64,000 bases of DNA, from positions 39,122,001-39,186,000 of the forward strand of contig OZ024748.1 in assembly GCA_964016885.1 (NCBI GenBank), read 5' to 3'. Shown piece by piece: positions 1 through 25,100 of the stretch (its first letter is position 1; each line of letters opens with the position of its first letter). Under the pieces are notes generated by a model. The model saw only the letters and a program-made list of their open reading frames with translations, did not search any database and was not told the DNA's origin. Source of the stretch: Eledone cirrhosa. Lineage: Eukaryota. The position numbers and the translations under genes were made by a program.

Positions 1-416
1 ATCTGCAACATCGTCAGTGGTGTTATATTTTCCTCCTGTTGTGTTGTATGTCTACGCCATTTTTATTCAGTCTGTCTATATATTTATTTATTTATTTGCT
101 TGTTTGTTTATTTTATTTCGTCTTCTTTGCGTATGCGTTTGCGTGTGTGTATAGTGTTATGTTTGCTGTGTGATGGGTGACTAGTGTGTGTTTATGTGCT
201 TGTTGTTATTGTGCTTGTGTATGTATTTATTTATTTATTTATCTTATTTTATTTACTTATTTATACTTCTCTTAGGTCAGTATTGTTTGTTTGGGTGTTG
301 TTGTTATTCCATTCATTCTTTCTGTTTAGCTTTGGTCTTCTAATTTCTATTTCACTGGCCTCTCTGATTTGCCTATCTGCTGGGTCATTTCTATGTTTAG
401 ATATTATTCTAATTTC

Positions 417-521
417 TATGTTGTCTATGTTACCGTCATGTTGTTGTCTAGCATGTTCGTATAGTACTGAGTACTATACGAACATGCTAGACAACAACAT
501 GACGGTAACATAGATAACATA
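417..521. repeat. Near-perfect 105-bp palindrome (52-bp arms, 1-nt centre)
   Basis: 417-468 is the reverse complement of 470-521 with one mismatch; the centre is g469 (…atagtact-g-agtactat…). Confidence 0.9.
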
Positions 522-552
522 TTCTGGCAATATTACACAAATATGACCCTCC

Positions 553-554
<2 letters not shown>

Positions 555-602
<48 letters not shown>

Positions 603-627
603 ATATATATATGTATATATGTATATA

Positions 628-721
<94 letters not shown>

Positions 722-725
722 CATA
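555..725. repeat. (TA)n/(TG)n microsatellite
   Basis: Read directly. Similar tracts at 1342-1455, 1630-1818, 3193-3258, 18419-18500 and 20565-20640. Confidence 0.95.
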
Positions 726-1338
726 CAGGGGTTGGACAAAATAATGGAAACACCTAGCATCATAGAATCATAATTTTGAAATATCTATAAAACCGTCAAA
801 AGCTTGTTTATTTTTATTGTTCTCGAGGTGGTCATTAATTTTGGTAGTAATTTTGGTAGTAATTTTGGTAGTAATTTTGGTAGTAATTTGGCAGTAATTT
901 TGGGAGCTGTACTTTTGTGATCCTTTCTAACAATTCGCGTAAGAGGCCGACGGTATCTATCTGAAAGTTTTGGTTTTCTTCCGGAGTTTTGTTTCGACGA
1001 GGAGGTTTTTCCCTCTTTCTCAAAGACTGTCATTACTTTCGAGACAGTACTTCTTGATACACCAAACATTTCGGCTGTTTTCGTTACGCTAGCGCCTGCC
1101 ATACGAGCACCAACAATTTGACCTCTTTGAAAGTCCGATAGATCTGTCATTTTAATGAATTTTAATTACCTTTTTCTGATGATATCTGGAGAGAAACAGC
1201 AATTTAAACAAATCATATTAAGCAACACTAATAATAAATTAAAAAAAACATAAAAATAAACAATCTTTTGACGGTTTTATAGATATTTCAAAATTATGAT
1301 GCTATGATGCGAGGTGTTTCCATTATTTTGTCCAACCC

Positions 1339-1341
<3 letters not shown>
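726..1341 (-). mobile_element. Internally deleted Tc1/mariner DNA transposon
   Basis: TIRs of about 80-90 bp (CAGGGGTTGGACAAAATAATGGAAACACC… at 726; reverse complement ending at 1341) with TA on both flanks. Minus-strand ORF 785-1150 (MTDLSDFQRGQIVGARMAGASVTKTAEMFGVSRSTVSKV…SGRKPKLS) is a Tc1-type HTH N-terminus with no DDE domain. A 12-bp tandem repeat (aattttggtagt) lies at about 837-895. Confidence 0.9.
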
Positions 1342-1375
<34 letters not shown>

Positions 1376-1381
1376 ATGTAT

Positions 1382-1455
<74 letters not shown>

Positions 1456-1500
1456 GTGACGAAACATAAGTCAATTGCATGAACTCATAATCCTTTATTT

Positions 1501-1556
1501 ACTGCTATATATATTTCGATGATAGCCATTGAGTGGCTATGACCTCATCAGGCAGT
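1501..1556 (-). ncRNA. Minimal type I hammerhead ribozyme
   Basis: Minus strand reads ACTGC-CTGATGA-GGTCATAGCCA CTCAA TGGCTATCATC-GAAA-TATAT-ATA-GCAGT. Stem I is ACTGC/GCAGT, the core is intact, stem II is present, stem III is short and palindromic, and the cleavage triplet is AUA. Confidence 0.8.
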
Positions 1557-1624
1557 TAGTAAGTTCTTAGATATGCCAGCTCTGTGCTTATGGTGTTGAT
1601 TCTTTCAGAGCCTTGGGGCATATC

Positions 1625-1686
<62 letters not shown>

Positions 1687-1755
1687 TATATAGATATATA
1701 TAATGTATAATGTATATATATAATGTATAGCTATACACTGTATATATAATCATAC

Positions 1756-1821
<66 letters not shown>

Positions 1822-1825
1822 CATA

Positions 1826-1970
1826 TTCCAGCATAGCTACGTCCGTTAACGATCTTAGTTCAAATCCCGACGAGGTTGACTTTGCCTTTCATCCTTACGG
1901 GGTCGATAAAATAAAGAAGCAGTAATGCACTGGGTAATTGCTGGCCTTGTGCCAAAAAAATGAAACAATT
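1826..1970 (+). mobile_element. tRNA-derived SINE (partial)
   Basis: B-box-like AGTTCAAATCCC followed by GACTTTGCCTTTCATCCTTACGGGGTCGATAAAATAAAG; same family as the copies at 13820-14010 and 18607-18783. Confidence 0.7.
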
Positions 1971-2365
1971 ATATATAATATATAATATAGATATGTAATA
2001 TCTAATATAGATATAATAATATAGATATAATATAATATAATAATATATAATATAGATATATAATATATAATTATATATAATATATAATATAGATATGTAT
2101 ATATATAACGTAGTGTGTGCTAGTGTGTATATATGTATGTATATATATATACATATGTGTGTGTGTGTGTAACAATTGTTCTCGGTATGGTGAACTAACT
2201 GTTGTGTTAAAGGGTGAAAGCAGCGATTCTTTGCTTAAACTTTAATCTGTTATTTTAATAAATATTTCCTCTAGGGTTCTTATATATTTGATATATATTT
2301 ATCCTTATCGAGCCCTCTTTGGATTTTAGTCTTCATATTTATTATTATTATTACTATATATATAT

Positions 2366-3192
2366 ACTAGCTGAGGTACCCGGTAATACCCGGGAGCGGG
2401 AGTATTCCCAGTTCCCATTAAAATGCCCAATGCCTCTCAGACTAAAAATGAAATACAAATATAGGACAGATAATCAAAAGCGAAGACAAATTCATTTACG
2501 AAACAATAATACAAACAAATATTGTTGATTACATTGGTCAGGTGAAAATATGTTCGTCAGAGAAGTTGAGTGTTGCTATAAATAAACAAATAGAACCCCA
2601 TTAGGGTGTCTCAATATTATTGACATTTGCTGAAATTTTGTGAATAGGTATCATATCTTGTCATTTACCTATGATTTAAATTTCATATAAATCGAAGGGA
2701 AAACATTTTCAGTGGGGGTGTTCAACGGGGTTTTGTGCCCCTAGGGACCCTTTGATTAAAATGAAATATACTTATCGAAGTACCCTGGGCAATGTAGTTT
2801 TAAAATATATATGGTTATGGGGGTCTATCTCCAAAAGCATAGGAGGAGTTCGTGAAATCTTGTTCCATTTATTGGCCAAAATGTTCACTATAGGGGGTTT
2901 AACCCCCAATAGGGTGTCTCAATATTATTGAAATTTGCTGAATTTTTGTGAATAGGCATCATATCTTGTCATTTACCTATGGTTTAAATTTCTTATAAAT
3001 CGATGGGAAAAAATTAAGCGGGGGTTTTCAGCAGAGGTTTGAACACCCGGGGAACCCTTTGATTAAAATGAAATATACGTAAGAAATCAAATGGGCATGA
3101 GCCCCCACACACGTGTCAAGCTACATCAAGATCCGTTTGTTAGTTTTTGAGTTTTAGGTTCACAAACAAACAAACAGAGAGAAATTGCCATT

Positions 3193-3200
<8 letters not shown>
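2366..3200. mobile_element. Non-autonomous Helitron/Helentron-like repeat with internal ~308-bp duplication
   Basis: Begins TACTAG…CCCGGTAATACCCGGG (hairpin-like) and ends ACAAACAAACAAACAGAG…TTTATATATA. 2600-2770 is duplicated at about 2908-3080, and a partial copy lies at 13440-13690. Confidence 0.55.
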
Positions 3201-3256
<56 letters not shown>

Positions 3257-3259
<3 letters not shown>

Positions 3260-4332
3260 TATAAAGCTAACGGCCGTATGTATGTAACAAACTTTTCGCC
3301 AAACGGCTGGACCAAACAGCACCAAATTTGCACTATAGATGTAACTTTTTCCAAGTAAAAAAGTGAGGGTATTTTTGTCTACTGAATTTTGTTAAAAGAT
3401 TAAAGACATTATTTAAATATTCACTTCTTTAAAATTTCAAATGTCAACACTTCCTGTTATACGACATTCCTCACTTTTTTTCGTCGCACAACATTCCCCT
3501 CTTTTTCTTAGTCTGTCTTTTTAGATAGATATAGGGCTATAACGTAGCGTCTTTATAATATGTCTCTGTATGTCTGGCTGTCTGTATTAGATAACGTTTT
3601 TCGAAATATTTACTTCTGGGTTCACAGATTGATTTTTTTTAGTTTCAGAAGTTAAGGGTGAAAGCCTTTGCTTAAACATTGTTATTTTAATATATATATT
3701 CGTGTACAGATATTTTGCATACACAAAAACAAAAACCTATTTATTTCACTAAAGCACAGACGGCTTATCGTCATTGTTACTGTTCGAGGTTAGAGGACCA
3801 CAGTCTTTCCAAGATCTGAGAACCATCAATAGCCATCAATGTTCCACTTACCGTTTGGCTTGCCAGATGCGTGGTTTGTTACACGATGACACCTATTGGC
3901 ACCTCACCCTGCAAGAAGCAGCAACTGCTAAAGTCCCTTCTCAGCTGCGAAAACCTTTTGCTATTATGCTGCACAACTGTGATCTCGCCACCCCGAAAGT
4001 CTAGTTGAGGACAACCTCCACCGCACACGCAGATACAATCCGAGCGTAACATACGATGTCGTTTTCAATGAGGCGCTCATCTGTCTTGAAAACAGTGTCC
4101 TGGAGATTGGTGGTAGGCTTCTAAGTCACTACAGCTTACCTGCTCCTGGCAGGAGTGTCCTGAGGTCAATGTCTACAGAGCTTCTCCGCGAGACGAGCTA
4201 CGAGATCAGTGCTTCTCCAGTGGTCAATTGTATGTAGGATGCTCTAGGGTGAGCTCGCCAAACAATCTCTTCATCTTTGCTCCGGAGGGCCGAACAAAAA
4301 ATATTGTATACTCTGAGGCTCTAACAATGTAA
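3257..4332 (+). mobile_element. Degraded Helitron with RepHel (Pif1-like helicase) fragments
   Basis: ORF 3774-4004 (LLFEVRGPQSFQDLRTIN…TYRLACQMRGLLHDDTYWHLTLQEAA…SQLRKPFAIMLHNC) matches a conserved Helitron RepHel block. About 4222-4332 encodes GQLYVGCSRVSS…TKNIVYSEAL, the Helitron helicase C-terminus. There are stops and a large internal deletion. Confidence 0.8.
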
Positions 4333-4840
4333 TTTAAATATTTTCTGTTACTTGGAATTTTCATTTTGGTTGTACAAATTATTGTTTGTTAAAAAATGTG
4401 TTCTCTGTTCAGCCTTTATTGTTGTAACTCTCAATTATCTTTAACGTACTGGCTGCTGAACTGGGGAATCCTAAAACTATTCAAACCCAACATCAGAGCA
4501 CGTTAACCATTTGGATAGTGAAAGAAAAAGAGAAAAATTTTAAATCTTTTATGAGGGATATGCAAATGAAGTATAAGAGTAGACTGAAAATATCGTTATA
4601 TTTAGACGCCAGGTACATTTAAATAATTATTAGGATACTTTATAAAAGAAGATGAAGCAGAAGAAGGAAGAAAGATAGGCTCATATTATTATTAGGGTGC
4701 AAGTAGATTTAAAAATTTAAAATGTGTTGAAGTGGTAGAATACTAAACCAAAAAGTTTTCAATATATAACCAAATCATGAGTTATAATATATATATAATG
4801 TATATAATTATATTTTAAGGAATTAAGGTTGTAGGTACAC

Positions 4841-4952
4841 TTTAGCTTATTATATTGCAACCAGTCAATTTAGCTTATTATATTGAAACCAGTCAATTTA
4901 GCTTATTATATGGAAACCAGTCAATTTAGCTTATTATATTGCAACCAGTCAA
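4841..4952. repeat. 28-bp minisatellite x4
   Basis: TTTAGCTTATTATATTGCAACCAGTCAA repeated four times. Confidence 0.9.
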
Positions 4953-5121
4953 TTATATACATATTTATATAAATAGATAAAAATATATACATGCTGTTAT
5001 TAATTCAAATATAATTTAAGGTTTACGAAGGATATGTGTTTACATTTTCAATATATAGTTAAGAAAAAAAAGTCCAAGATGGCACGGATGGGGTGGGCAG
5101 GAAGGAGACGTCCATACCATA

Positions 5122-5129
5122 ATGCCAAT
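5122..5129 (+). CDS. Candidate short first coding exon of the TIL-like gene (M-P-I)
   Basis: ATG CCA AT|GTAAGA: purine at -3 and a strong phase-2 donor matching the phase-2 acceptor at 5687. The spliced N-terminus would be MPISDFIEPFKIH, similar in length to bacterial TnaA/TPL N-termini. Speculative. Confidence 0.35.
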
Positions 5130-5229
5130 GTAAGACAGTAGCTATTGTCATTTTATCGTGTCAGTTGATATTACGTTAAATATAATTCCGGTTTTATCTG
5201 TGATTTACTGATATAGCTTACGTCAATTG

Positions 5230-5620
5230 TTTCTTCTTCGTCCAGTTATTTCTGAGAGGGTCGTGGGGTCAGAGTCCTCCAACACTCCTTCCAGCAAGTC
5301 ATGTCAGAAGCAACCGTTTCCATCTGATCCGGCTGGATCTCCCAAGCATGACCAGCCAAGCTCATGGATCTTAGCAAACCATCTTACTCAGGGTGGGTCG
5401 ATCCCTGGGTCTCTTGTCGGTTTGTTTTGCCCGTAAAATCTGTCCGGTGATTCTTTCCTGAGACATTCTAACCACATGTCCATAGTATCAGAGCTGTGAT
5501 CTCTCAATTCGGAGAAGTAGCGGCTCTACCTGGAGTAACTCTCTGATCTCAGAACTACGCACCCTATCGAGTAACATTACTCCAAAGACCCTTTAGAGGA
5601 ATCCCATTTCGGCCGCTTGT
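5230..5620 (-). mobile_element. RTE-like LINE 3' fragment
   Basis: Similar to 8700-9100 (TTCTGAGAGGGTCGTGGGG…AACACTCCTTCCAGCAAGTCATGTCAGAAGCAA…AGGAATCCCATTTCGGCC) with a (TTC)n tail; degenerate RT C-terminus. Confidence 0.65.
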
Positions 5621-5687
5621 ATTGTTTCTATTTACGAAATAACACAACTGAGGATTTTAATAGTGTCAAATTTTCGTTTCCTTTCAG

Positions 5688-7185
5688 TTCCGACTTTATC
5701 GAACCATTTAAAATACATATTGTAGAGAACATAAAGATCAATAACCGTAACGACAGATTAATTGCTCTCGAGAAAGCTGACTACAACATCTTTAAATTAC
5801 AACCTGAAGATGTCATGATCGATTTCCTTACAGATGCTGGCACTAATGCTTTCAGTCTTGAACAAAACGCAAGAATATGGATGGGTGATGAAAGTTATGC
5901 CGGATCTACTAGTTATGAAACTTTGAAAGACACGGCAACATATATTTCTGGTTTTGAAAACATTCTGCCAGTTTTTTCTGAATGTATCAGCGAAGAGATT
6001 GTCGCTTCTTATTTCACAAAAGCTGGAGATAAGGTTATTGGGAATACTTTTACTTATTCACTTGAGAAGCATATAAAGGATCTTCATGCTGAAGCGATTT
6101 CTTTGTTAGATTGGTCAGATAATAATTTTGCAGGAAATCTAGATGTTCAAGCACTCAAAAACTTATTGGCAGAAAATGATAAAAAATCAATTTCCTTTCT
6201 TATAATGAATGTACCAGCAAAAAGTAGTGGTGGCCAACCAGTTAGTATGTCAAACATGAAAGCAGTTTCTGATCTCTGTCGCGAACATTCGATTCCGATA
6301 TACATCGAAAGTAGTATGTATGGTGAGAACTGTTGGCTCAATAAAATGTACGAAGAGGCTTACTTCAATAAATCGTTAGTTGAGATATCGCAAGAAATGT
6401 TTTCTTTTTTCGATGGCTGCATTATTTCTGCTAAAAGAGATGGTAGAAGTGAGATTGGAAGTGTCATTTGTCTTCAAGACAAAGAAATGACTCGAAAATT
6501 GGGCACTGTTATTACTCTTAAAGCAGGTTTCATAACTTATGGTGGGATGGCTGGCCGAGATATGGAAATTGTAGCGGTTGGCATGCGAGATGCTTTGGAT
6601 GAACAACTGCAAGACTATCGACAAAAACAATTGGCATTTTTCAAAAAATCCCTGAAGGAATTTGGTGTTCCGATTGTGGAGCCAGTCGGTTGTAATACCA
6701 TCTTCATTGATGCCGAAAATGCTTTTCCTAACTGTAAACACGCGTTTTATCCAGCCTGGTCTTTATCTTGTGCTGTTTATATCGTCGGGGGTATCCGATG
6801 CGCAGAGTTTGGTCAAGTTACCCGTCCAACAAGCAGCTTACCCACTAATCATTTTCTGAAAGACCGAGAATTACTAAAGCTAGAGATACCTCGTTTCATC
6901 TATACGACTTGTCACATTTTCTATGTTGCCTATGTTTTCGCTCAGCTTATTTCACATGAAATGCTTTCTGGAATGAAACGTATTGCCTGCTCCGAAGACC
7001 AAATAAAAATCGTGAAAATAAAAATGAAACCAAATCATTCTCTGGAATATGACGATATCCAACTCCTTCCGGTACAAGACTGTGAACACAATCACTTCTT
7101 TAAAAACATATCTAATCAAAGAGTTATGAAAAGAAATTCAATCGCCGAGGCATCTTCTATATGGTCAGTCGACATTCCTTCTTAA
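5688..7185 (+). CDS. tnaA: Tryptophan indole-lyase (tryptophanase)/beta-eliminating lyase-like, copy 1: PLP site degenerate, catalytic Tyr retained; probably an exon
   Basis: Motifs EPFKI, YNIFKLQPEDVMIDFLTDAGT, MGDESYAGS, GGQPVSMSN, SAKRDG, GFITYGGMAGRDME and EIPRFIYT align with TnaA/TPL. The ORF-track start (5617) is TTG and there is no early ATG. A polypyrimidine tract with CAG ends at 5687, just before the homology begins. Possible donor TG|GTCAGT at 7163/7164. Confidence 0.88.
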
Positions 7186-7380
7186 AAAGGGGACAAACAC
7201 GTTAGATAATGTAATCGTAGACACAAAAAAGACGTGGTGGTCATGATTGGAACGTCCCTGATCATATAATTGCTCTGTCAATGTTGACCTGAACTTAAAC
7301 AACAGCAACAACAACACAGAAATTTTTTTTTTGTTGCACCCAAACAGGGTTCTGTAAATTCTAGATTGTACATTCTTTTA

Positions 7381-7523
7381 TTCTTTTACTGGTTTCAGTC
7401 ATTAGACTGTGGCCATGCTGGGGCACTGTTCTTTTACTGGTTTCAGTTATTAGACTGTGGCCATGCTGGGGCAGTGGTCTTTTACTGGATTCAGTGATTC
7501 TACTGTGGCCATGCTAGGGCACC
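7381..7523. repeat. 48-bp x3 tandem repeat, probably derived from a SINE end
   Basis: TTCTTTTACTGGTTTCAGTCATTAGACTGTGGCCATGCTGGGGCACTG, three diverged copies. Confidence 0.8.
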
Positions 7524-8699
7524 AATTGATTGTTAGTTTATTTTTTTTAATTGGTTTTATTACCAACAATTAAACTATTGAACATGATTTTGAATAGAAA
7601 GTAGGGGAAAACATTGACAGTCTTGTCAAATATAGTTTTAATATTATGTTAACAAACCATGAAATAAAATATCTTTGGAAACTTAAATATATTTCTTGTG
7701 ATGTTCTTTTTACAATTATTTCACCAATATATAATTAATATGAAACATTGTGATGTATGTTTCACCAATATATAATTAATATGAAACATTGTGATGTGGT
7801 TGTGATAATTCGGGGAAAGATGGTACAACGAATATTAGATAAACTAAGGTGAAAAGATACAACAAATCAGCATTTTAAACTTTTGTCTTATATTTCTTGA
7901 TATTTTGAGGTGAAAAACTTTTTTCAAAAGAAAGAAATGGAGTCTGGTGTTGTCAACGCCCAAAGAAATGTTGATAAACGATTTATTTACATCAACTTAT
8001 TATTGATGGTGACATGCTTTTGTTTCACTTTAAAAAAATATTATAATAAGGTGACATACTAATATAAATATTATTTTAAAAATAAAAAACAAATCTTGAA
8101 ACATCTTATGACTGTGGCAGTGGCAAGGTTTATAGAGTTAAGAAGCCTCACAACCATCTGATTTCCGGTTCCTTTAGACTACATGGCATCTTAAAGAAGT
8201 GTCTTTCTGCCATAGGTTCGAGTCAACAAAACGGACAGTTTGCCCTTTTCGGCTTGGCGGGCAGCAGGGCCTGTACTGGTGGTGGAATGCACCAGGTTGG
8301 CACTTGCAATTAATTGTAATATTACTGATAGATGTTGTTTCAATTCTGTGCCATTAATTGTAGATCAACGACAACATTGTTGCAGTAGTTATTTCAATTC
8401 TGTGCCATTAATAATCTGTGTTACGAACACTACATAAATAGTCTACAGGTGTTACCTTGATTTCACCAGATGGAAATATCAAAATCAAAATTGATTATGT
8501 AATTGTTCCAAACAATATTCTCGAAATGCTGAAAAACTGCCATGTGTATATTTCTACAGATATTGGTCTAGAATATTTCAACTTAGAGGCTGGAAAACAC
8601 AAACGTTATTATCATAAATGTACTGTGATTGTGTGAGGCTTAATTATTAAAGATTGTAAAATCCATTCCCAGTGAATTGGTCAAACTATATCCAAGAAT

Positions 8700-9530
8700 T
8701 TTCTTTTTCTTCCTTCACTTATTCCTGAGAAGGTCGTGGGGGAAGAGTCTTCAAACACTCCTTCTAGCAGGTCCTGTCAGAAGCAATCATCTCCAACTGA
8801 TTTGGCTGGATCCCCAAGCGAGACCTGCCAAGCTTATGGATGTTATCCAACTATCTTGCTCAGGGTCTACTCCTGGGTCTCCTGCTGGTTGGTTTTGCCA
8901 ATAAAATCTGTCCAGTATTTCCTTGGACATTCTAGCCATATAATATGTAATATCAGAGCTATGATTTCTCAATTCGGAGAAGTATCAATTCTAACAGGAG
9001 TGATTCACAAGTCTCCAAGCTACACACACTATCGAGTAATGATACTCCAAATACCCTTTTGGAGGAACCCCATTTTGGCCACTTGTATTTGCGATTGTAT
9101 TCTTTCAGTCATTACACAAGATTCATGACCATAGGTAAGGGTTGGCACGAAAACCGAATTGAAGATAGTGAGTTTGGTGTTTACACCTACCTCCCTTCTT
9201 CTGATTACCAAATGCCAAAGCTGTCACATTACTGCAGCAGCTCCTGCAATTATTGCACTTAATTCGGCCTCCTGCCTTCCATCACTCGTGACCATGGCCC
9301 TGAGATACTTGAACTTCTCTACCAACTTCAGTAGAACTCCCTTCGCATGTAGAATGCACTGCGCAGGCTTCCTTTAGAAGACGAGTGTCTCAGTTTTCAC
9401 AGCACTGAATTTCATTCCAGCCATGCAGCACTCTGCATCAAACCTATCAAGTGCAAGTCAGAGATCACCTTTTGTTGAGTTTGTAACACCATGTTGTCTG
9501 CAAATTCCAGCCACAAATTGCTGGCCATGT
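8700..9530 (-). mobile_element. RTE-like LINE 3' fragment (RT C-terminal region, frameshifted)
   Basis: Minus-strand peptides TKLTIFNSVFVPTLTYGHESCVMTERIQSQIQVAKMGFL (9029-9211) and EKFKYLRA (about 9295-9320) are typical of LINE ORF2 downstream of the RT core. Confidence 0.8.
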
Positions 9531-9594
9531 GCCTAAATTAGAAAACCTTATTCCTGCAAAAGGTCCTGTTAATCCTTAATTATTATTAAATATA

Positions 9595-9766
9595 ACATAT
9601 ATACAAACTGGAGCTGTGTCAGGGACCAGTCCGCAAACATATATACAAACTGGAGCTGTGTCAGGGACCAGCCTGCAAACATATATACAAACTGGAGCTG
9701 TGTCAGGGACCAGTCCGCAAACATATATACAAACTGGAGCTGTGTCAGTGACAATGTCTGCAAACA
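9595..9766. repeat. 42-bp minisatellite x~4
   Basis: ACATATATACAAACTGGAGCTGTGTCAGGGACCAGTCCGCAA in tandem; this explains the repetitive ORFs at 9569-9862. Confidence 0.9.
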
Positions 9767-10090
9767 ATGAGTTGAACATTTTAACACCAAGAATATATGA
9801 TAAATAAAAACTACAGTTAACAGATTTTTGTGTTTTGAATTACTAAAGTGACTCGTGTACAATGTAATTGGTATATATATATATACTCACTCTATATGTA
9901 TGTGTTTTTATATAAATATGTAAATATTTGTGTATATATATATATATATAGTTGTTATATAGTAAGGTGTATTATTGGTTGTGTCATACGGTCCAATAAA
10001 CTTTTGTTAGCAATATTAAGTTCTCCACGCTTTTGTATATCTCCAATTCCATTTAAGGGAACAGCTAGATGATGTAAAATGGAGTATTTG

Positions 10091-11688
10091 TATCAAAATA
10101 AAGATCCGAAAGCATGGTATAAATTTCCAATCATTTTAATCACAACACGTTTCAATAAGGGATAGATCGATCGTGTGGTCATGATCGATTATCACTGATT
10201 TCATCATTTTTAACTGAGTGTGTAATACGTCTATTTACTAACTGAGAGAACTCTATGGTTAGGGTATTCTAAACCTTCCTCAGGATTTTTGGAAAGTAAC
10301 CTACCACTAACTCCTCCCTTTTTACCTTAGCCATAGAGTTCTCTCAATTAGCAAAAAATAGACAATCACACACTCAGGTAGTAGACAGCTAAGATCGTTT
10401 GCGCACCTACACACTGTACTCGGTATGTTTCCACAGAGTTCTCACAGCTGAGTGCATATTTACCATTACTTTAGAATACCTAGTTAGTAAATAGTTAGAA
10501 CAATTACACTCGCAGTTAAGACCGATTACGCGCATTCACCATTACTTTAGAATACCCTAACCATAGAGTTCTCTCAGTTAGGAAATAGACGTATTACACA
10601 CTCAGTTAAGAACGTTACGCTCTTTATACATAATTCTACACAGTACCCGGTTTCTTTAGACACAGAGTTGCCACAGTTATGACCAGTCATGATCTTGTCG
10701 ATTGAATACTACACTAGGTTTTGGTCTGTGATCCTCTAACCAAGGAGTGCTCACAGTTTGCTGAATGGACAATACTACTTACACGCCATCAATGGACTTA
10801 CACACATCCCCGGTGTTTTGTTATTTTATTTTGTGTTGGGTAACACACCTCCACCACTCAAACACTTATCTTAAAGGCCCGAGGGCCCATTTGACGGGAA
10901 AACGCACACACTGACAGCTTAACTCAAATACCCAACCCTATATGGAGCCCCTTGTTGGCCTACATGGCAGGTGCTTGCACGCACAGACTCGGGGACCCAG
11001 ATTCTCAACGGGACAACGGCACATATAGAGTTCGATACGAGCTGACTACTTGCTCTACACATGGATGTGTATATACCAAAACATACACTATTTAGACGAT
11101 ACAGATGTTACAATTCAATCGATACACGTATAGCAGAACGTTGAAGGGAATTTACTTGCGTGTGTATAGTGTTGTGGTTGACCCAATTTTTTTCTAATTT
11201 ACATCGTGAAAATTGAGATTTGACCAATATAACGTTTGTTGTTTTGTAACCTAACTTTTGGTGCATACTGTGTTGCTGTGTATATTTTTTTTTCTCTGAC
11301 CTCGCGTCGGTGTGTGTGAGTGTGTGTGCACTCAATAAAACTAATTGTGACGGACCAAAATTCTACAGATCTGGTGCTGAGATTAGACCTGTCCAGCGTC
11401 TTTTACAGCTATTGAGAGATAGAGACTTGATAGATTTATGACCCTGACTGAAGACAATAGCAGTTGTCGTGTTTGGCTGCTGATTATTCATATGGGGAAC
11501 AAAACTCCAGTGAGTGAACATCGTTAGTTTTTCCTCCCTCATATCAAAGATTTGAAGACATTTCATTATTCACCTGATGAGATCAGTGATAATCGATCAT
11601 GACCACACGATCGATCCCTTATTGAAACATGTGTCGTGATTAAAATGATTGGAAATGTATACCATGCCTTCGGATCTTTATTTTGATA
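10091..11688. mobile_element. Element bounded by ~115-bp inverted repeats carrying a hammerhead motif (Penelope-like pLTR type, non-coding)
   Basis: 10091-10206 is the near reverse complement of 11575-11688. A nested inverted repeat pairs about 10210-10273 with about 10546-10609. Confidence 0.6.
11570..11639 (+). ncRNA. Type I hammerhead ribozyme
   Basis: TCAC-CTGATGA-[GAT…ATCGATC…GATCGAT…ATT]-GAAA-C-ATGT-GTC-GTGA. Stem I is TCAC/GTGA, the core is intact, stem III carries palindromic ACATGT, and the GUC triplet is at 11633-11635. Confidence 0.7.
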
Positions 11689-11735
11689 TATATATATAAA
11701 ACTGAATTTACATTTTTTTTTCCAGTCTCCAAGCA

Positions 11736-13115
11736 ATGGAACCTTACAGGATTAAGGTATTTTATCCAGTCAATTTAATCCCCAAGTCTGACCGTATTGC
11801 ATGTCTAAAAGCTGCCAACTACAACCCCTTTCTACTTAAATCGAAAGACATATTTATAGATTTGCTAACAGATTCTGGTACAGGAAGTCAAAGCAGTGCC
11901 CAGTGGTCGGCTATGACTAAAGCCGGCTATTCAACTATTAATTCCGAATACGTTAAAGAATTTGTACGTACAATTCAACACATTACCAATTTCAAACATG
12001 TATTTCCAGTTCATCAAGGTCGAGGAGCCGAAGATTTGTTGGCAAAACTCCTACTGAATAAAGAGAGTGTTGTACTGAGTAATTCTCTGTTTGACACAAC
12101 ACGAGCACACGTTGAGTCATCTGGTGCAATTGGAATAGATTTGGCAACAAAGTCTTCAAAATTCTTAGGTGATGCCGATGTGGAAAACTTTGAAGAAACA
12201 CTGGATAAATATGGTTCTAGAGTTCATCTTGTAATAATAACCTGCACCAATAATGTGGTAGCCGGAGCTCCTGTGAGCATGCAAAATATAGAAATCATAA
12301 CAAAATTATGTCGAAACAAGAATATCCCAGTTATAATGGACGCATGCCGTTTTGTTGAAAATGCTTATTTTATCAAGACCTTAGACGAAAAATATTCTAA
12401 ACACACAATCTTAGATATTGCCAGCGAAATGTTTTCTTATTTTGATGGTGCAACTATGTCTTTAAAGAAAGATGGTATGAGCAATGGAGGTGGGTTTATA
12501 GCTTTCAACAACGACAAATGGGCCACCAAAATATTTGACATAATCGAATATAAAAGTGGTTATTCAACTTACGGGGGAATAACTGGATCAAATCTTGTAG
12601 CATGTACTGTCGGAATTTCTGAGGCTATGAACGAAAATTACCTCCGATCAAGAATCTATCAGGCTAAATTACTGGCTGATTTCTTGGAAGATAATAATAT
12701 TCCCGTATTTAAACCAGTAGGGGCCCATGCCGTCTACGTGAAAGCAAACAAAGTCTTGCCACACCTTGATTTCTTGAAGTATCCAGCATGGTCCCTTAAT
12801 TGTGCCGTATATATCGAAGGTGGTATTCGATGTGGAGAAATTGGCAATGTAATGTTTGGTGGAAATTCAGATGGAACTAAACAAATTCATCCCTTTGAAT
12901 ATGTGCGTTTGGCTTTACCCAGAAGAACCTATACGGTCAACCATCTGCATTTTGTGGCCAAAACTTTTGGTTTTGTTGCCAAAAAAGCCCATTTAATCCA
13001 CGGAATGGAAATTGTCAAATCTTCGCATCTCCTGAGACATTTCTCAATTTGGATGAGACCATTAAATGAATACCACCTTGAAAAGAATAATAATCAGAAA
13101 AAAATAAACTGTTGA
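11736..13115 (+). CDS. tnaA: Tryptophan indole-lyase (tryptophanase)-like, copy 2: PLP site intact, catalytic Tyr motif degenerate
   Basis: 459 aa with EPYRIK, IDLLTDSGTG, HQGRGAE, FDTTRAH, TCTNN, MDACRFVENAYFIK, SLKKDG (PLP Lys codon 12468), RLALPRRTYT and LRHFS. FDTT and LRHF are TIL-type (TPL has FTTT and LRFF). An acceptor TTTTTTTTTCCAG ends at 11725, so the exon may start at 11726. Confidence 0.92.
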   Translation: MEPYRIKVFYPVNLIPKSDRIACLKAANYNPFLLKSKDIFIDLLTDSGTGSQSSAQWSAMTKAGYSTINSEYVKEFVRTIQHITNFKHVFPVHQGRGAEDLLAKLLLNKESVVLSNSLFDTTRAHVESSGAIGIDLATKSSKFLGDADVENFEETLDKYGSRVHLVIITCTNNVVAGAPVSMQNIEIITKLCRNKNIPVIMDACRFVENAYFIKTLDEKYSKHTILDIASEMFSYFDGATMSLKKDGMSNGGGFIAFNNDKWATKIFDIIEYKSGYSTYGGITGSNLVACTVGISEAMNENYLRSRIYQAKLLADFLEDNNIPVFKPVGAHAVYVKANKVLPHLDFLKYPAWSLNCAVYIEGGIRCGEIGNVMFGGNSDGTKQIHPFEYVRLALPRRTYTVNHLHFVAKTFGFVAKKAHLIHGMEIVKSSHLLRHFSIWMRPLNEYHLEKNNNQKKINC

Positions 13116-15525: not shown

Positions 15526-16288
15526 ATATATGGATAATAGGATGAATTTGGTACAACCAATAAATTATAAAGGCAACAAATATTTTCTTGTTTTAATATT
15601 GCAGTTTATACATATCTTAAGAAGCAGTATAAGAAAAGCTTACATTTCATTTTCAAACTTAAGTAAAAAATAAAATATATATTTATTTTCAATTTTTAAA
15701 ATGCGAGCAAAAACATAAAATCGATTTCAATATTCATCACACACACATATATATACATGTATATTATTTGGAAAAAAAAAGGGGGTGGGGTAAAGTTTTA
15801 TACAAAAAAATGATGACCAGTTCGAATATTTGAGAGAAAACTCAAGTATATTCGAACTGCTCAGATATTAAAAAATTTTTTTTTATTAATATTCAATATT
15901 TAACATCTAATATTTGATAAAATTGTTTTACCAATCGAAACCAGTTATATTTAATGCAACAATTATAAAATTATTCATTCTGTCAGATTAAAGAAAAAAT
16001 AATCTTTTAATATTCCCTGGACTTTGGCAATTTCAACCCCCTACCAACAGTACTGCTGGTTCACTCTGGGTCACAGCGTTTGAGACAAGTCAGAGCGTAG
16101 AGGCCAAATAATTATTTTAAATTATTCTATGAAAAATAAAAATTAATTACACGTATCTAAATATCACAATTTATTTTGTTGGATGATCTACCAACTTTGC
16201 CATCAACCAGTCATTTCTATCAAATAATTTCCAATAATATTTGTGAATATGAAAAGGTAAAGAAAGATCTATATATGTGTGTGTATAT

Positions 16289-17317
16289 ATAACGTCTGAA
16301 TAGCTCAGGCTGTCATAACTGATAGTCCTCGGTGAAATGTGTATAACGTCTGAAGAGCTCAGGCTGTCATAACTGATAGTCCTCAGTGAAATATGTATAA
16401 CGTCTGAAGAGCTCAGGCTGTCATAACTGATAGTCCTCAGTGAAATATGTATAACGTCTGAAGAGCTCAGGCTGTCATAACTGATAGTCCTCAGTGAAAT
16501 GTGTATAACGTCTGAAGAGCTCAGGCTGTCATAACTGATTGTCCTCGGTGAAATGTGTATAACGTCTGAAGAGCTCAGGCTGTCATAACTGATAGTCCTC
16601 AGTGAAATATGTATAACGTCTGAAGAGCTCAGGCTGTCATAACTGATAGTCCTCAGTGAAATATGTATAACGCCTGAAGAGCTCAGGCTGTCATAACTGA
16701 TAGTCCTCGGTGAAATGTGTATAACGTCTGAAGAGCTCAGGCTGTCATAACTGATAGTCCTCAGTGAAATATGTATAACGTCTGAAGAGCTCAGGCTGTC
16801 ATAACTGATAGTCCTCAGTGAAATATGTATAACGTCTGAAGAGCTCAGGCTGTCATAACTGATAGTCCTCAGTGAAATGAGTATAACGTCTGAAGAGCTC
16901 AGATTGTCATAACTGATAGTCCTCGGTGAAATGTGTATAACGTCTGAAGAGCTCAGGCTGTCATAACTGATAGTCCTCAGTGTAATATGTATAACGTCTG
17001 AAGAGCTCAGGCTGTCATAACTGATAGTCCTCAGTGAAATATGTATAACGTCTGAAGAGCTCAGGCTGTCATAACTGATAGTCCTCAGTGAAATGAGTAT
17101 AACGTCTGAAGAGCTCAGGCTGTCATAACTGATAGTCCTCGGTGAAATGTGTATAACGTCTGAAGAGCTCAGGCTGTCATAACTGATAGTCCTCGGTGAA
17201 ATGTGTATAACGTCTGAAGAGCTCAGGCTGTCATAACTGATAGTCCTCAGTGAAATATGTATAACGTCTGAAGAGCTCAGGCTGTCATACCTGATAGTCC
17301 TCAGTGAAATGTGTATA
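16289..17317 (+). repeat. 54-bp x19 tandem array; each monomer is a minimal hammerhead ribozyme
   Basis: Unit ATAACGT-CTGAAGA-GCTCAGGCTGTCA TAAC TGATAGTCCTCAGT-GAAA-TATGT/TGTGT; units start at 16289+54n for n=0-18. Confidence 0.9.
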
Positions 17318-22167: not shown

Positions 22168-25100
22168 TTCATTACCATATTTCTCACAAAAGACACTGTA
22201 TGTCATTACCATATTTGTAATGAAAGACAAAGTCTATGTCATTAACCCTTTCATTACCATATTTCTAATGAAAGACACTGTCTATGTCATTAACCCTTTC
22301 ATTACAATATTTCTAATGAAAGACAGTCTATGTCATTAACCCTTTCATTACCATATTTCTAATGAAAGACACTGTCTATGCAATTAACCCTTTCATTAAC
22401 ATATTTCTCACAAAAGCCACTGTTTGTGTCATTGACCATTTCATTACCATATTTCTAATGAAAGACACTGCCTATGTCATTAACCCTTTATTATCATATT
22501 TCTAATGAAAGACACTGTCTATGTCATTAACCCTTTATTATCATATTTCTAATGAAAGACGCTGTCTATGTCATTAACCCTTTCATTAACATATTTCTCA
22601 CAAAAGACACTGCCTATGTCCATATTACCATATATCTAATGAAAGACACTGTCTATGTCATTAACTCTTTCATTACCATATTTCTAATGAAAGACACTGT
22701 CTATTTCATTAACCCTTTCATTACCATATTTCTAATGAAAGACACTGCCAATGTCATTAACCCTTTCATTACCATATTTCTGACACTGTCTATGTCATTA
22801 ACCCTTTGATTATCATATTTCTAATAAAAGACACTGTTTATGTCATTAACCCTATCATTACCTTATTTCTAATGAAAGACACTGTCTATTTCATTAACCC
22901 TTTCATTACCATATTTCTAATGAAAGACACTGTCTATTTCATTAAACCTTTCATTACCATATTTCTAATGAAAGACACTGTCTATGTCATTAACCCTTTC
23001 ATTACCATATTTCTAATGAAAGACACTGTCTATGTCATAAACCCTTTCATTACCATATTTCTAATGAAAGTCACTGTCTATGTCATTAACACTTTCATTA
23101 CCATATTTCTAATGAAAGACACTGTCTATTTCATTAACCCTTTCATTACCATATTTCTAATGAAAGACACTGCCAATGTCATTAACCCTTTCATTACCAT
23201 ATTTCTGACACTGTCTATGTCATTAACCCTTTCATTATCATATTTCTAATAAAAGACACTGTTTATGTCATTAACACTATCATTACCTTATTTCTAATGA
23301 AAGACACTGTCTATGTCATTAACCCTGTCATTACCATATTTCTAATGAAAGACACTGCCAATGTCATTAACCCTTTCATTACCATATTTCTAATGAAAGA
23401 CACTGTCTATGTCATTAACCCTTTCATTACCATATTTCTAATGAAAGACACTGTCTATTTCATTAACACTTTCATTACCATATTTCTAATGAAAGACACT
23501 GGTCTATTTCATTAACCCTTTCATTACCATATTTCTAATGAAAGACACTGTCTATTTCATTAACCCTTTCATTACCATATTTCTAATGAAAGACACTGTC
23601 TATTTCATTAACCCTTTCATTACCATATTTCTAATGAAAGACACTGTCTATTTCATTAAGCCTTTCATTACCATATTTCTAATGAAAGACACTGTCTATT
23701 TCATTAACCCTTTCATTACCATATTTCTAATGAAAGACACTGTCTATTTCATTAAACCTTTCATTACCATATATCTAATGAAAGACACTGTCTATGTCAT
23801 TAACCCTTTCATTACCATATTTCTAATGAACGTCACTGTCTATGTCATTAACACTTTCATTACCATATTTCTAATGAAAGTCACTGTCTATGTCATTAAC
23901 CCTTTCATTACCATATTTCTAATGAAAGTCACTGTCTATGTCATTAACCCTTTCATTACCATATTTCTAATGAAAGTCACTGTCTATGTCATTAACCCTT
24001 TCATTACCATATTTCTAATGAAAGACACTGTCTATGTCATTAACCCTTTCATTACCATATTTCTAATGAAAGTCACTGTCTATGTCATTAAGCCTTTCAT
24101 TGCCATATTTCTAATGAAAGTCACTGTCTATGTCATTAACCCTTTCATTACCATATTTCTAAGGAAAGTCACTGTCTATTTCATTAACCCTTTCATTACC
24201 ATATTTCTAATGAAAGACACTGTCTATGTCATTAACCCTTTCATTACCATATTTCTAATGAAAGTCACTGTCTATGTCATTAACCCTTTCATTACCATAT
24301 TTCTAATAAAATCACTTTCTATGTCATTAACCCTTTCATTACCATATTTCTAATGAAAGACACTGTCTATGTCATTAACCCTTTCATTACCATATTTCTA
24401 ATAAAAGTCACTGTCTATGTCATTAACCCTTTCATTACCATATTTCTAATAAAAGTCACTGTCTATGTCATTAACACTTTCATTACCATATTTCTAATGA
24501 AAGACACTGTCTATTTCATTAACCCTTTCATTACCATATTTCTAATGAAAGACACTGCCAATGTCATTAACCCTTTCATTACCATATTTCTGACACTGTC
24601 TATGTCATTAACCCTTTCATTATCATATTTCTAATAAAAGACACTGTTTATGTCATTAACCCTATCATTACCTTATTTCTAATGAAAGACACTGTCTATG
24701 TCATTAACCCTGTCATTACCATATTTCTAATGAAAGACACTGCCGATGTCATTAACCCTTTCATTACCATATTTCTAATGAAAGACACTGTCTATGTCAT
24801 TAACCCTTTCATTACCATATTTCTAATGAAAGACACTGTCTATTTCATTAACCCTTTCATTACCATATTTCTAATGAAAGACACTGCCAATGTCATTAAC
24901 CCTTTCATTACCATATTTCTGACACTGTCTATGTCATTAACCCTTTCATTATCATATTTCTAATAAAAGACACTGTTTATGTCATTAACACTATCATTAC
25001 CTTATTTCTAATGAAAGACACTGTCTATGTCATTAACCCTGTCATTACCATATTTCTAATGAAAGACACTGCCAATGTCATTAACCCTTTCATTACCATA

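Follow-up and report, generated by a model that had tools for sequence, protein, structure and literature searches.

Cephalopod tryptophan indole-lyase (TIL) is reportedly composed of two subunits, each inactive alone, whose co-expression yields a weakly active heterotetramer. Two coding bodies of this kind were analyzed in a 64,000-nucleotide stretch of Eledone cirrhosa DNA (contig OZ024748.1, positions 39,122,001 to 39,186,000, forward strand; hereafter the window, numbered from its first base), where they are referred to as copy 1 and copy 2, or by our own labels alpha and beta, with residue numbering running from the start of each exon. A sequence-only reading of the window had noted that complementary cephalopod TIL subunits may already be reported, and a paper on this subject exists (Yuasa 2023, J Mol Evol 91:912, PMID 38007709); the heteromeric cephalopod enzyme has probably been published already. 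The resemblance reportedly lies in the pairing of two defective TIL paralogues, and the locus described here differs in coming from another octopod lineage, in the longer C-terminus of alpha and in the presence of ten cassette copies. Added here are a likely one-gene layout, a ten-unit array and an independent bacterial parallel; the shared first exon and the array were missed in the sequence-only reading.

The bacterial TnaA enzymes of E. coli and Proteus vulgaris (PDB 2OQX, 1AX4) and the tyrosine phenol-lyase (TPL) of Citrobacter (PDB 2EZ1) are, like the octopod chains, fold-type I beta-eliminating lyases dependent on pyridoxal 5'-phosphate (PLP) with a two-subunit active site, but they are homotetramers with four complete sites, whereas the octopod chains each carry half of the residue set. 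The same logic operates in engineered E. coli TIL hybrid dimers, where pairing of the H463F and Y74F mutants rescues activity on L-Trp (Phillips 2002, Biochemistry 41:4012); those are point mutants combined in vitro, whereas the octopod pair is natural and carries dozens of fixed complementary changes. Constructive neutral evolution of yeast Fcy1 likewise converted a homomer into an obligate heteromer through complementary loss-of-function changes, there in a laboratory experiment, with a different enzyme and with duplicates that are separate genes (PMC10888846). One further paper lists Octopus tnaA genes (PMC8537960) and another links tryptophanase to indole pigments in a whelk (PMC4962025). 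A literature search that misses most subscription journals turned up no text on the heteromer, on a first exon common to both chains, on the array or on the bacterial fusions, which is no proof of their being unpublished.

Active-site residues of the two copies

From sequence comparison and complex modelling, we consider it probable that copies 1 and 2 are the alpha and beta subunits of cephalopod TIL and that a single gene with alternative last exons encodes both, and we predict that they pair, the Tyr loops of alpha completing the PLP site of beta. Directly observed are mirror-image losses in the two copies, conservation among orthologues, a phase-matched first exon, and ten cassette copies in the assembly.

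The open frame of copy 1 (5689–7185) encodes 498 residues following its acceptor, and that of copy 2 (11727–13115) encodes 462 residues, giving predicted proteins of 504 and 468 residues with the first exon; the two proteins are 30% identical. Both gave full-length profile and PDB matches to the tryptophanase/beta-eliminating lyase family, including NCBIfam tryptophanase subfamily NF009709 (399 bits for copy 1, 490 bits for copy 2, cut-off 285), and neither reached the thresholds of the equivalog models for TnaA and TPL (TIGR02617, NF053783). All codons and motifs named in the sequence-only reading were found on inspection. Copy 1 retains GDESYAGS (5884; Tyr codon TAT at 5896) and TYGGMAGRDME (6535), and carries the altered motifs FSECISE (5974), TYSL (6052), ESSMY (6307) and SAKRD (6427; Arg codon AGA at 6436), with NVPAKSSGGQPVS at 6208, and IKIV in place of LRHF. 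Copy 2 contains HQGRGAE (12012), FDTT (12090), TCTNN (12240), DACRF (12339), SLKKD (12459) and LRHF (13032), and has AGYST at 11922, in the region of the lost lent Tyr (Thr codon ACT at 11934, Tyr codon TAT at 11928). Alpha is thus changed in its own PLP site (K250R, D207E, R210M, N178K, R397K) and keeps the residues lent to a partner (Glu68, Tyr70 and the Tyr284 loop), and beta keeps PLP Lys248, Asp205, Arg208, Asn176, Arg394, FDTT and LRHF, and has lost the lent Tyr (Thr70) and Glu68. Neither copy has the PLP Lys and the lent Tyr on one chain, as canonical homomeric TnaA does, copy 1 having Arg for the Lys and copy 2 Thr for the Tyr. The PLP-bearing beta has FDTT and LRHF, the TIL-type motifs, and not FTTT and LRFF, the TPL-type ones, an assignment based on PDB alignments and general background on the family.

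Best matches and the tree place the two copies as orthologues of the two Octopus TIL types (76–77% identity for alpha, 82% for beta), with complementary disruptive substitutions. Copy 1 was considered as a decaying pseudogene, and this was rejected on its open frame, its identity to the Octopus orthologues, and its invariant lent residues. At alpha codons 99 and 441 (5983, 7009), this lineage has Cys where the remaining 7 alphas retain Arg, and Ile or Leu where they retain His; these changes and the longer C-terminus of this alpha were read as further erosion of the dead site.

The complementary-loss pattern proposed in the sequence-only reading recurs, by column and motif counts, across 8 alpha-type and 7 beta-type proteins (window, O. 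bimaculoides, O. sinensis, Argonauta, Logan and ENA records), aligned with a reference set of 338 non-cephalopod homologues of 420–500 residues, with near-duplicate cephalopod cluster members excluded. The references define 123 columns with conservation of 95% or more; of these, 52 were kept in both clades, 23 were lost in alpha only, 13 in beta only, 2 in both, and 33 were mixed. The 2 columns lost in both are not significantly fewer than the approximately 4 expected by our arithmetic if losses were independent, and, as judged from the alignment, the complementarity signal lies in the identity of the lost residues rather than in the count of doubly lost columns. The alpha clade has lost the PLP Lys (Arg in 8 of 8), Asp207, Arg210, Asn178, Arg397, and the FD of FDTT, and the beta clade has lost Asp67, Glu68, Tyr70, Ala71 and Gly72. 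Lent-loop residues were retained at 123 of 144 positions in alpha (85%) and 43 of 126 in beta (34%), and own-site motif residues at 132 of 376 (35%) and 280 of 329 (85%), respectively; the ranges were picked from known motifs and the rows are related, so these fractions describe the pattern and are no independent test.

Since beta keeps its whole PLP site, it might instead be a working homomeric lyase, perhaps for S-substituted cysteines or other substrates that carry a good leaving group, with alpha as a non-catalytic regulator or scaffold. We regard this as very improbable, given that Glu68, Tyr70 and Tyr284 are kept in 8 of 8 alphas, that the catalytic Tyr position of beta is occupied by T, S, G or N, and that each cephalopod subunit is reportedly inactive by itself. 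The Tyr two residues before it in copy 2 (11928) was considered as a stand-in for the catalytic Tyr and rejected, this residue being H, F or V in the other 6 of 7 betas. A role for the alpha pocket would fit the unusual fixation of its dead-site replacements (13 of 28 columns invariant versus 4 of 94 in the background, compared with 5 of 20 versus 12 of 95 for lost sites in beta, a comparison biased by lost sites being buried), and these invariant replacements may indicate that the pocket is plugged or that it serves as a separate ligand site. In the E. coli enzyme, the PLP of one subunit is hydrogen-bonded by Tyr74 and Tyr307 of its neighbour, and the activity of Y74F is 0.2 versus 45.7 U/mg (PMC2770544).

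Modelling of the heterodimer, proposed as a check in the sequence-only reading, was performed using ESMFold2 with alpha residues 1–439, beta and PLP as input, producing a complex score of 0.78, with 0.00 for the best of 3 controls; 51 of 78 solved complexes pass at the mark used, as do 2 of 108 mismatched pairs. Runs agreed in at least 94% of contacts, partner predicted local distance difference test (pLDDT) values were at least 88, and 21 of the 25 tightest pairs placed alpha 67–74 or 286–290 against beta 35–52, 253–254 or 289, so that the modelled contact face is the side of the predicted live site in beta. This pass may derive from likeness to solved homodimers of the family. The split-site heteromer proposed in the sequence-only reading, with neither copy working alone, is thus a prediction supported by the residues of the two copies, the cross-species pattern, the role of E. 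coli Tyr74 and Tyr307, and the complex model.

In the tree, alpha and beta each form a clade with support of 100, with matching inner splits (octopod versus more distant sequences), and lie within an animal TIL group (support 98, FastTree) together with chiton, bivalve and coral enzymes. The two clades adjoin the chiton and bivalve enzymes, and the chiton enzyme has both Tyr and Lys. Monophyly of alpha and beta together is likely on the sequence trees. Some distant betas (P0126, P0250, P0251) have a diverged C-terminal third, with VRLSVPNR or VRLCVPNR and FRHL or LRHL, and are possibly a second beta paralogue with changed specificity, as far as these motifs indicate.

A probable shared first exon and one-gene layout

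A first exon encoding M-D-F-S-D and two bases of a Leu codon, followed by a GTAAG donor, was located upstream of the window (Table 1). MDFSDL opens both the alpha-type isoform X1 (XP_014791032.1) and the beta-type isoform X2 (XP_014791033.1) of O. bimaculoides, and the X1 and X2 isoforms of O. sinensis start likewise. The acceptors CAG/T at 5688 and 11726 have the same phase and match the CT/GTAAG donor, so that each presents the in-phase sharing of a donor expected of alternative last exons; the predicted intron from exon 1 to beta is 12,129 bases. Searching the genome with the first-exon peptide and donor pattern gave 12 matches, 9 of them in the locus region, a longer pattern matched those 9 alone, and exon 1 lies 6.1–7.0 kb upstream of alpha in 6 of 10 units. 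Because the first Met of copy 1 is at residue 43 and the 38 open codons further upstream lack one, alpha needs an upstream exon, and copies 1 and 2 are likely, from these sequence features, alternative last exons of one gene. The "two paralogues" of the sequence-only reading therefore stand as two diverged tryptophanase-family bodies, and likely not as two stand-alone genes.

An in-frame ATG in good context lies within the beta exon at 11736, where the Argonauta models begin, and the sequence of 7186–11725 is compatible with a private non-coding exon, so the heteromer could be right with alpha and beta as separate genes, beta having its own promoter and starting at this ATG. This arrangement seems improbable, as the beta exon starts at a canonical acceptor in the phase of alpha in 9 of 9 array copies, the two Octopus RefSeq betas begin MDFSDLL, and two distant betas start MNFDELL and MDFNEML. 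Furthermore, a scan of window positions 1–11726 found no ATG-bearing mini-exon with a matching donor, and the first exon sits just upstream.

Several points weigh against the favoured combination of one gene and an obligate heteromer. Beta could be made without exon 1 from the ATG at 11736, and the RefSeq isoforms X1 and X2 are predicted models. In distant alphas an apparent intron occupies the same position but is preceded by different opening peptides, and exon sharing may therefore be octopod-specific and not general. The complex model cannot tell a heterodimer from a homodimer preference, and the single clade of alpha and beta has weak support (79 in a quick IQ-TREE run, 86 in a second tree).

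Under the one-gene layout, exon 1 would be spliced to the alpha exon across a 6.1-kb intron, with the transcript ending ahead of beta, or would skip alpha and join the beta exon across a 12.1-kb intron, one promoter thereby supplying both chains. In the predicted alpha-beta catalytic dimer, beta would bind PLP (Lys248) and substrate, and alpha would supply the general-acid Tyr70, together with Tyr284 and Glu68, the second site of the dimer being dead, such that two of the four sites of an alpha2-beta2 tetramer would work, with slow cleavage of L-Trp to indole, pyruvate and ammonia as the expected reaction. The arrangement would likely go back to an ancestral homomeric animal TIL whose single body exon was duplicated in tandem, after which the two copies underwent complementary losses.

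The interior of intron 1 contains frames at 785–1165 (minus strand) and about 3750–4330 (plus strand), which resemble the start of a Tc1/mariner transposase and a Helitron helicase fragment, respectively.

The ten-unit array

A genome search revealed 10 alpha and 9 beta exons on the plus strand at C8:39.127–40.132 Mb (approximately 1 Mb), with DNA about 99% identical, as well as two inverted alpha fragments; the window holds unit 1 of this array. The state of each unit is given in Table 1.

Table 1. Features of the TIL locus and condition of the array units (positions in the window unless a contig is named)
Feature	Position	Strand	Basis or condition
Predicted shared first exon, coding part	G000:C8:39121580-39121596 (L005:9580)	+	Peptide/donor pattern search; outside the window, starting 421 bases before base 1
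3' part of intron 1 (6,091 bases in total)	1..5687	+	Polypyrimidine tract and CAG end; predicted splicing
Alpha last exon, coding part (copy 1)	5688..7185	+	Acceptor and open frame; motif and codon reading
Beta last exon, coding part (copy 2)	11726..13115	+	Acceptor and open frame; motif and codon reading
Candidate poly(A) signal, alpha transcript	7663..7668	+	First AATAAA past the stop; weak, such hexamers being common here
Units 1, 4, 7 and 9			Exon 1 and two open frames; fully intact
Unit 8			Insertion of two bases next to the alpha stop (517 codons)
Unit 10			Nonsense codon in beta (codon 368)
Units 2 and 3			No plus-strand start exon; beta frameshift; then inverted exon 1 and alpha fragment
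Unit 5			No exon 1; alpha frameshift
Unit 6			No exon 1, no beta

The array might be an assembly artefact, produced by uncollapsed haplotypes or a mis-resolved repeat, with one or two cassettes in the animal; units 4, 7 and 8 share one beta exon sequence, several other beta exons are 1–3 bases apart, and large satellite blocks adjoin the array. We consider this rather unlikely, since all ten alpha exons are distinct, differing mutually by 3–16 bases, and the private frameshifts, nonsense codon, exon-1 deletions, inversions and varied intron lengths amount to more haplotypes than one diploid holds. Taking the array as real, pN/pS (the non-synonymous to synonymous polymorphism ratio) among the array copies, broken ones included, was 0.49 for alpha (23 non-synonymous and 13 synonymous changes, p 0.04). 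The corresponding ratio for beta was 1.17 (16 non-synonymous, 4 synonymous), and this too counts against the favoured interpretation, purifying selection on the extra beta copies not being shown. The expansion of the array is recent and not shown to be selected.

Two tandem repeats accompany the array. A 48-base satellite (L030, L031–L038, L049) fills window positions 22203–64000 (878 copies, 91% matches, strong GC skew of about −0.47), was present in 8 of 8 samples out to at least 39.534 Mb (G000:C8), apparently spanning approximately 390 kb and separating unit 1 from unit 2, and occurs again near 39.978–40.05 Mb. A 54-base repeat (window positions 16288–17317, downstream of beta) is part of the repeated unit (L008, L011), and measures approximately 1 kb in unit 1 and about 4.5–5 kb in units 2 and 3, beside their inversions. 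Argonauta hians has three adjacent TIL models, Ahia01_001214700, _001214800 and _001214900 (P0127, P0003, P0244), which are a partial beta, a joined beta and alpha, and a beta; these point to tandem repetition in that species as well, or to a gene model joined in error.

Bacterial fused lyases and implications

Of 14 non-cephalopod proteins of 780–1000 residues examined, 13 have two lyase domains. In all 13 of these fusions domain 1 keeps GDE[AT]YAG and YGG, and in 8 of them it lacks the PLP Lys; domain 2 keeps KKD and lacks the Tyr of YGG throughout (13 of 13), and the catalytic Tyr is missing from it in 11. A scan of a genome collection (80 loci kept, from 2 of 64 parts) gave 9 single-open-reading-frame fusions with the same split, 7 loci with two adjacent ordinary genes, and 64 single-domain loci. 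In the tree the fusion halves fall outside the animal clade, and most have motifs of the TPL type; on this sequence evidence bacteria appear to have reached the same split independently, in fused two-domain TPL-like proteins. The likeness to the octopod pair is that one half keeps the Tyr loops and mostly loses the PLP Lys and the other keeps the Lys and mostly loses both Tyr; the differences are the single chain, the TPL-type specificity motifs and the independent origin.

Examples of fused two-domain proteins are found at L051–L054, L078 and L095–L098, and as P0007, P0013, P0388–P0394, P0397, P0398, P0408 and P0423; some first domains still have the Lys and are intermediate-like. In 7 of the 80 bacterial loci (L055, L068, L086, L100, L102, L121, L130), a TIL-type and a TPL-type gene are adjacent, with key motifs preserved in every gene contained in full on its contig, and such pairs are a possible precursor state of the fusions. 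A query of the ESM Atlas with one fused protein returned single-domain clusters only, and a metagenome scan with the alpha alignment, covering 23 of 64 parts, gave no cephalopod DNA among the 80 loci kept (29–36% identity).

A wider interpretation, held tentatively and given somewhat less than an even chance, is that of an octopod one-gene obligate heteromer in which duplication of the body exon downstream of a single promoter and start exon would have produced mutually exclusive last exons whose active sites then decayed in complementary halves, the choice of splice and poly(A) site would set the subunit ratio and enzyme level, tenfold amplification of the whole gene would perhaps raise the indole output of a slow enzyme, and the bacterial fusion would be a second, independent solution. 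The core case, a natural homomer turned obligate heteromer, is of textbook quality and apparently already in print. If one promoter and start exon feed both subunits, splicing solves the co-expression of duplicated subunits, and, if the one-gene layout is true, the subunit ratio becomes a regulatory dial. The independent bacterial fusions allow two origins of the same split to be compared, and the ten-copy array points to a lineage-specific dosage change of an indole-producing enzyme in this octopod.

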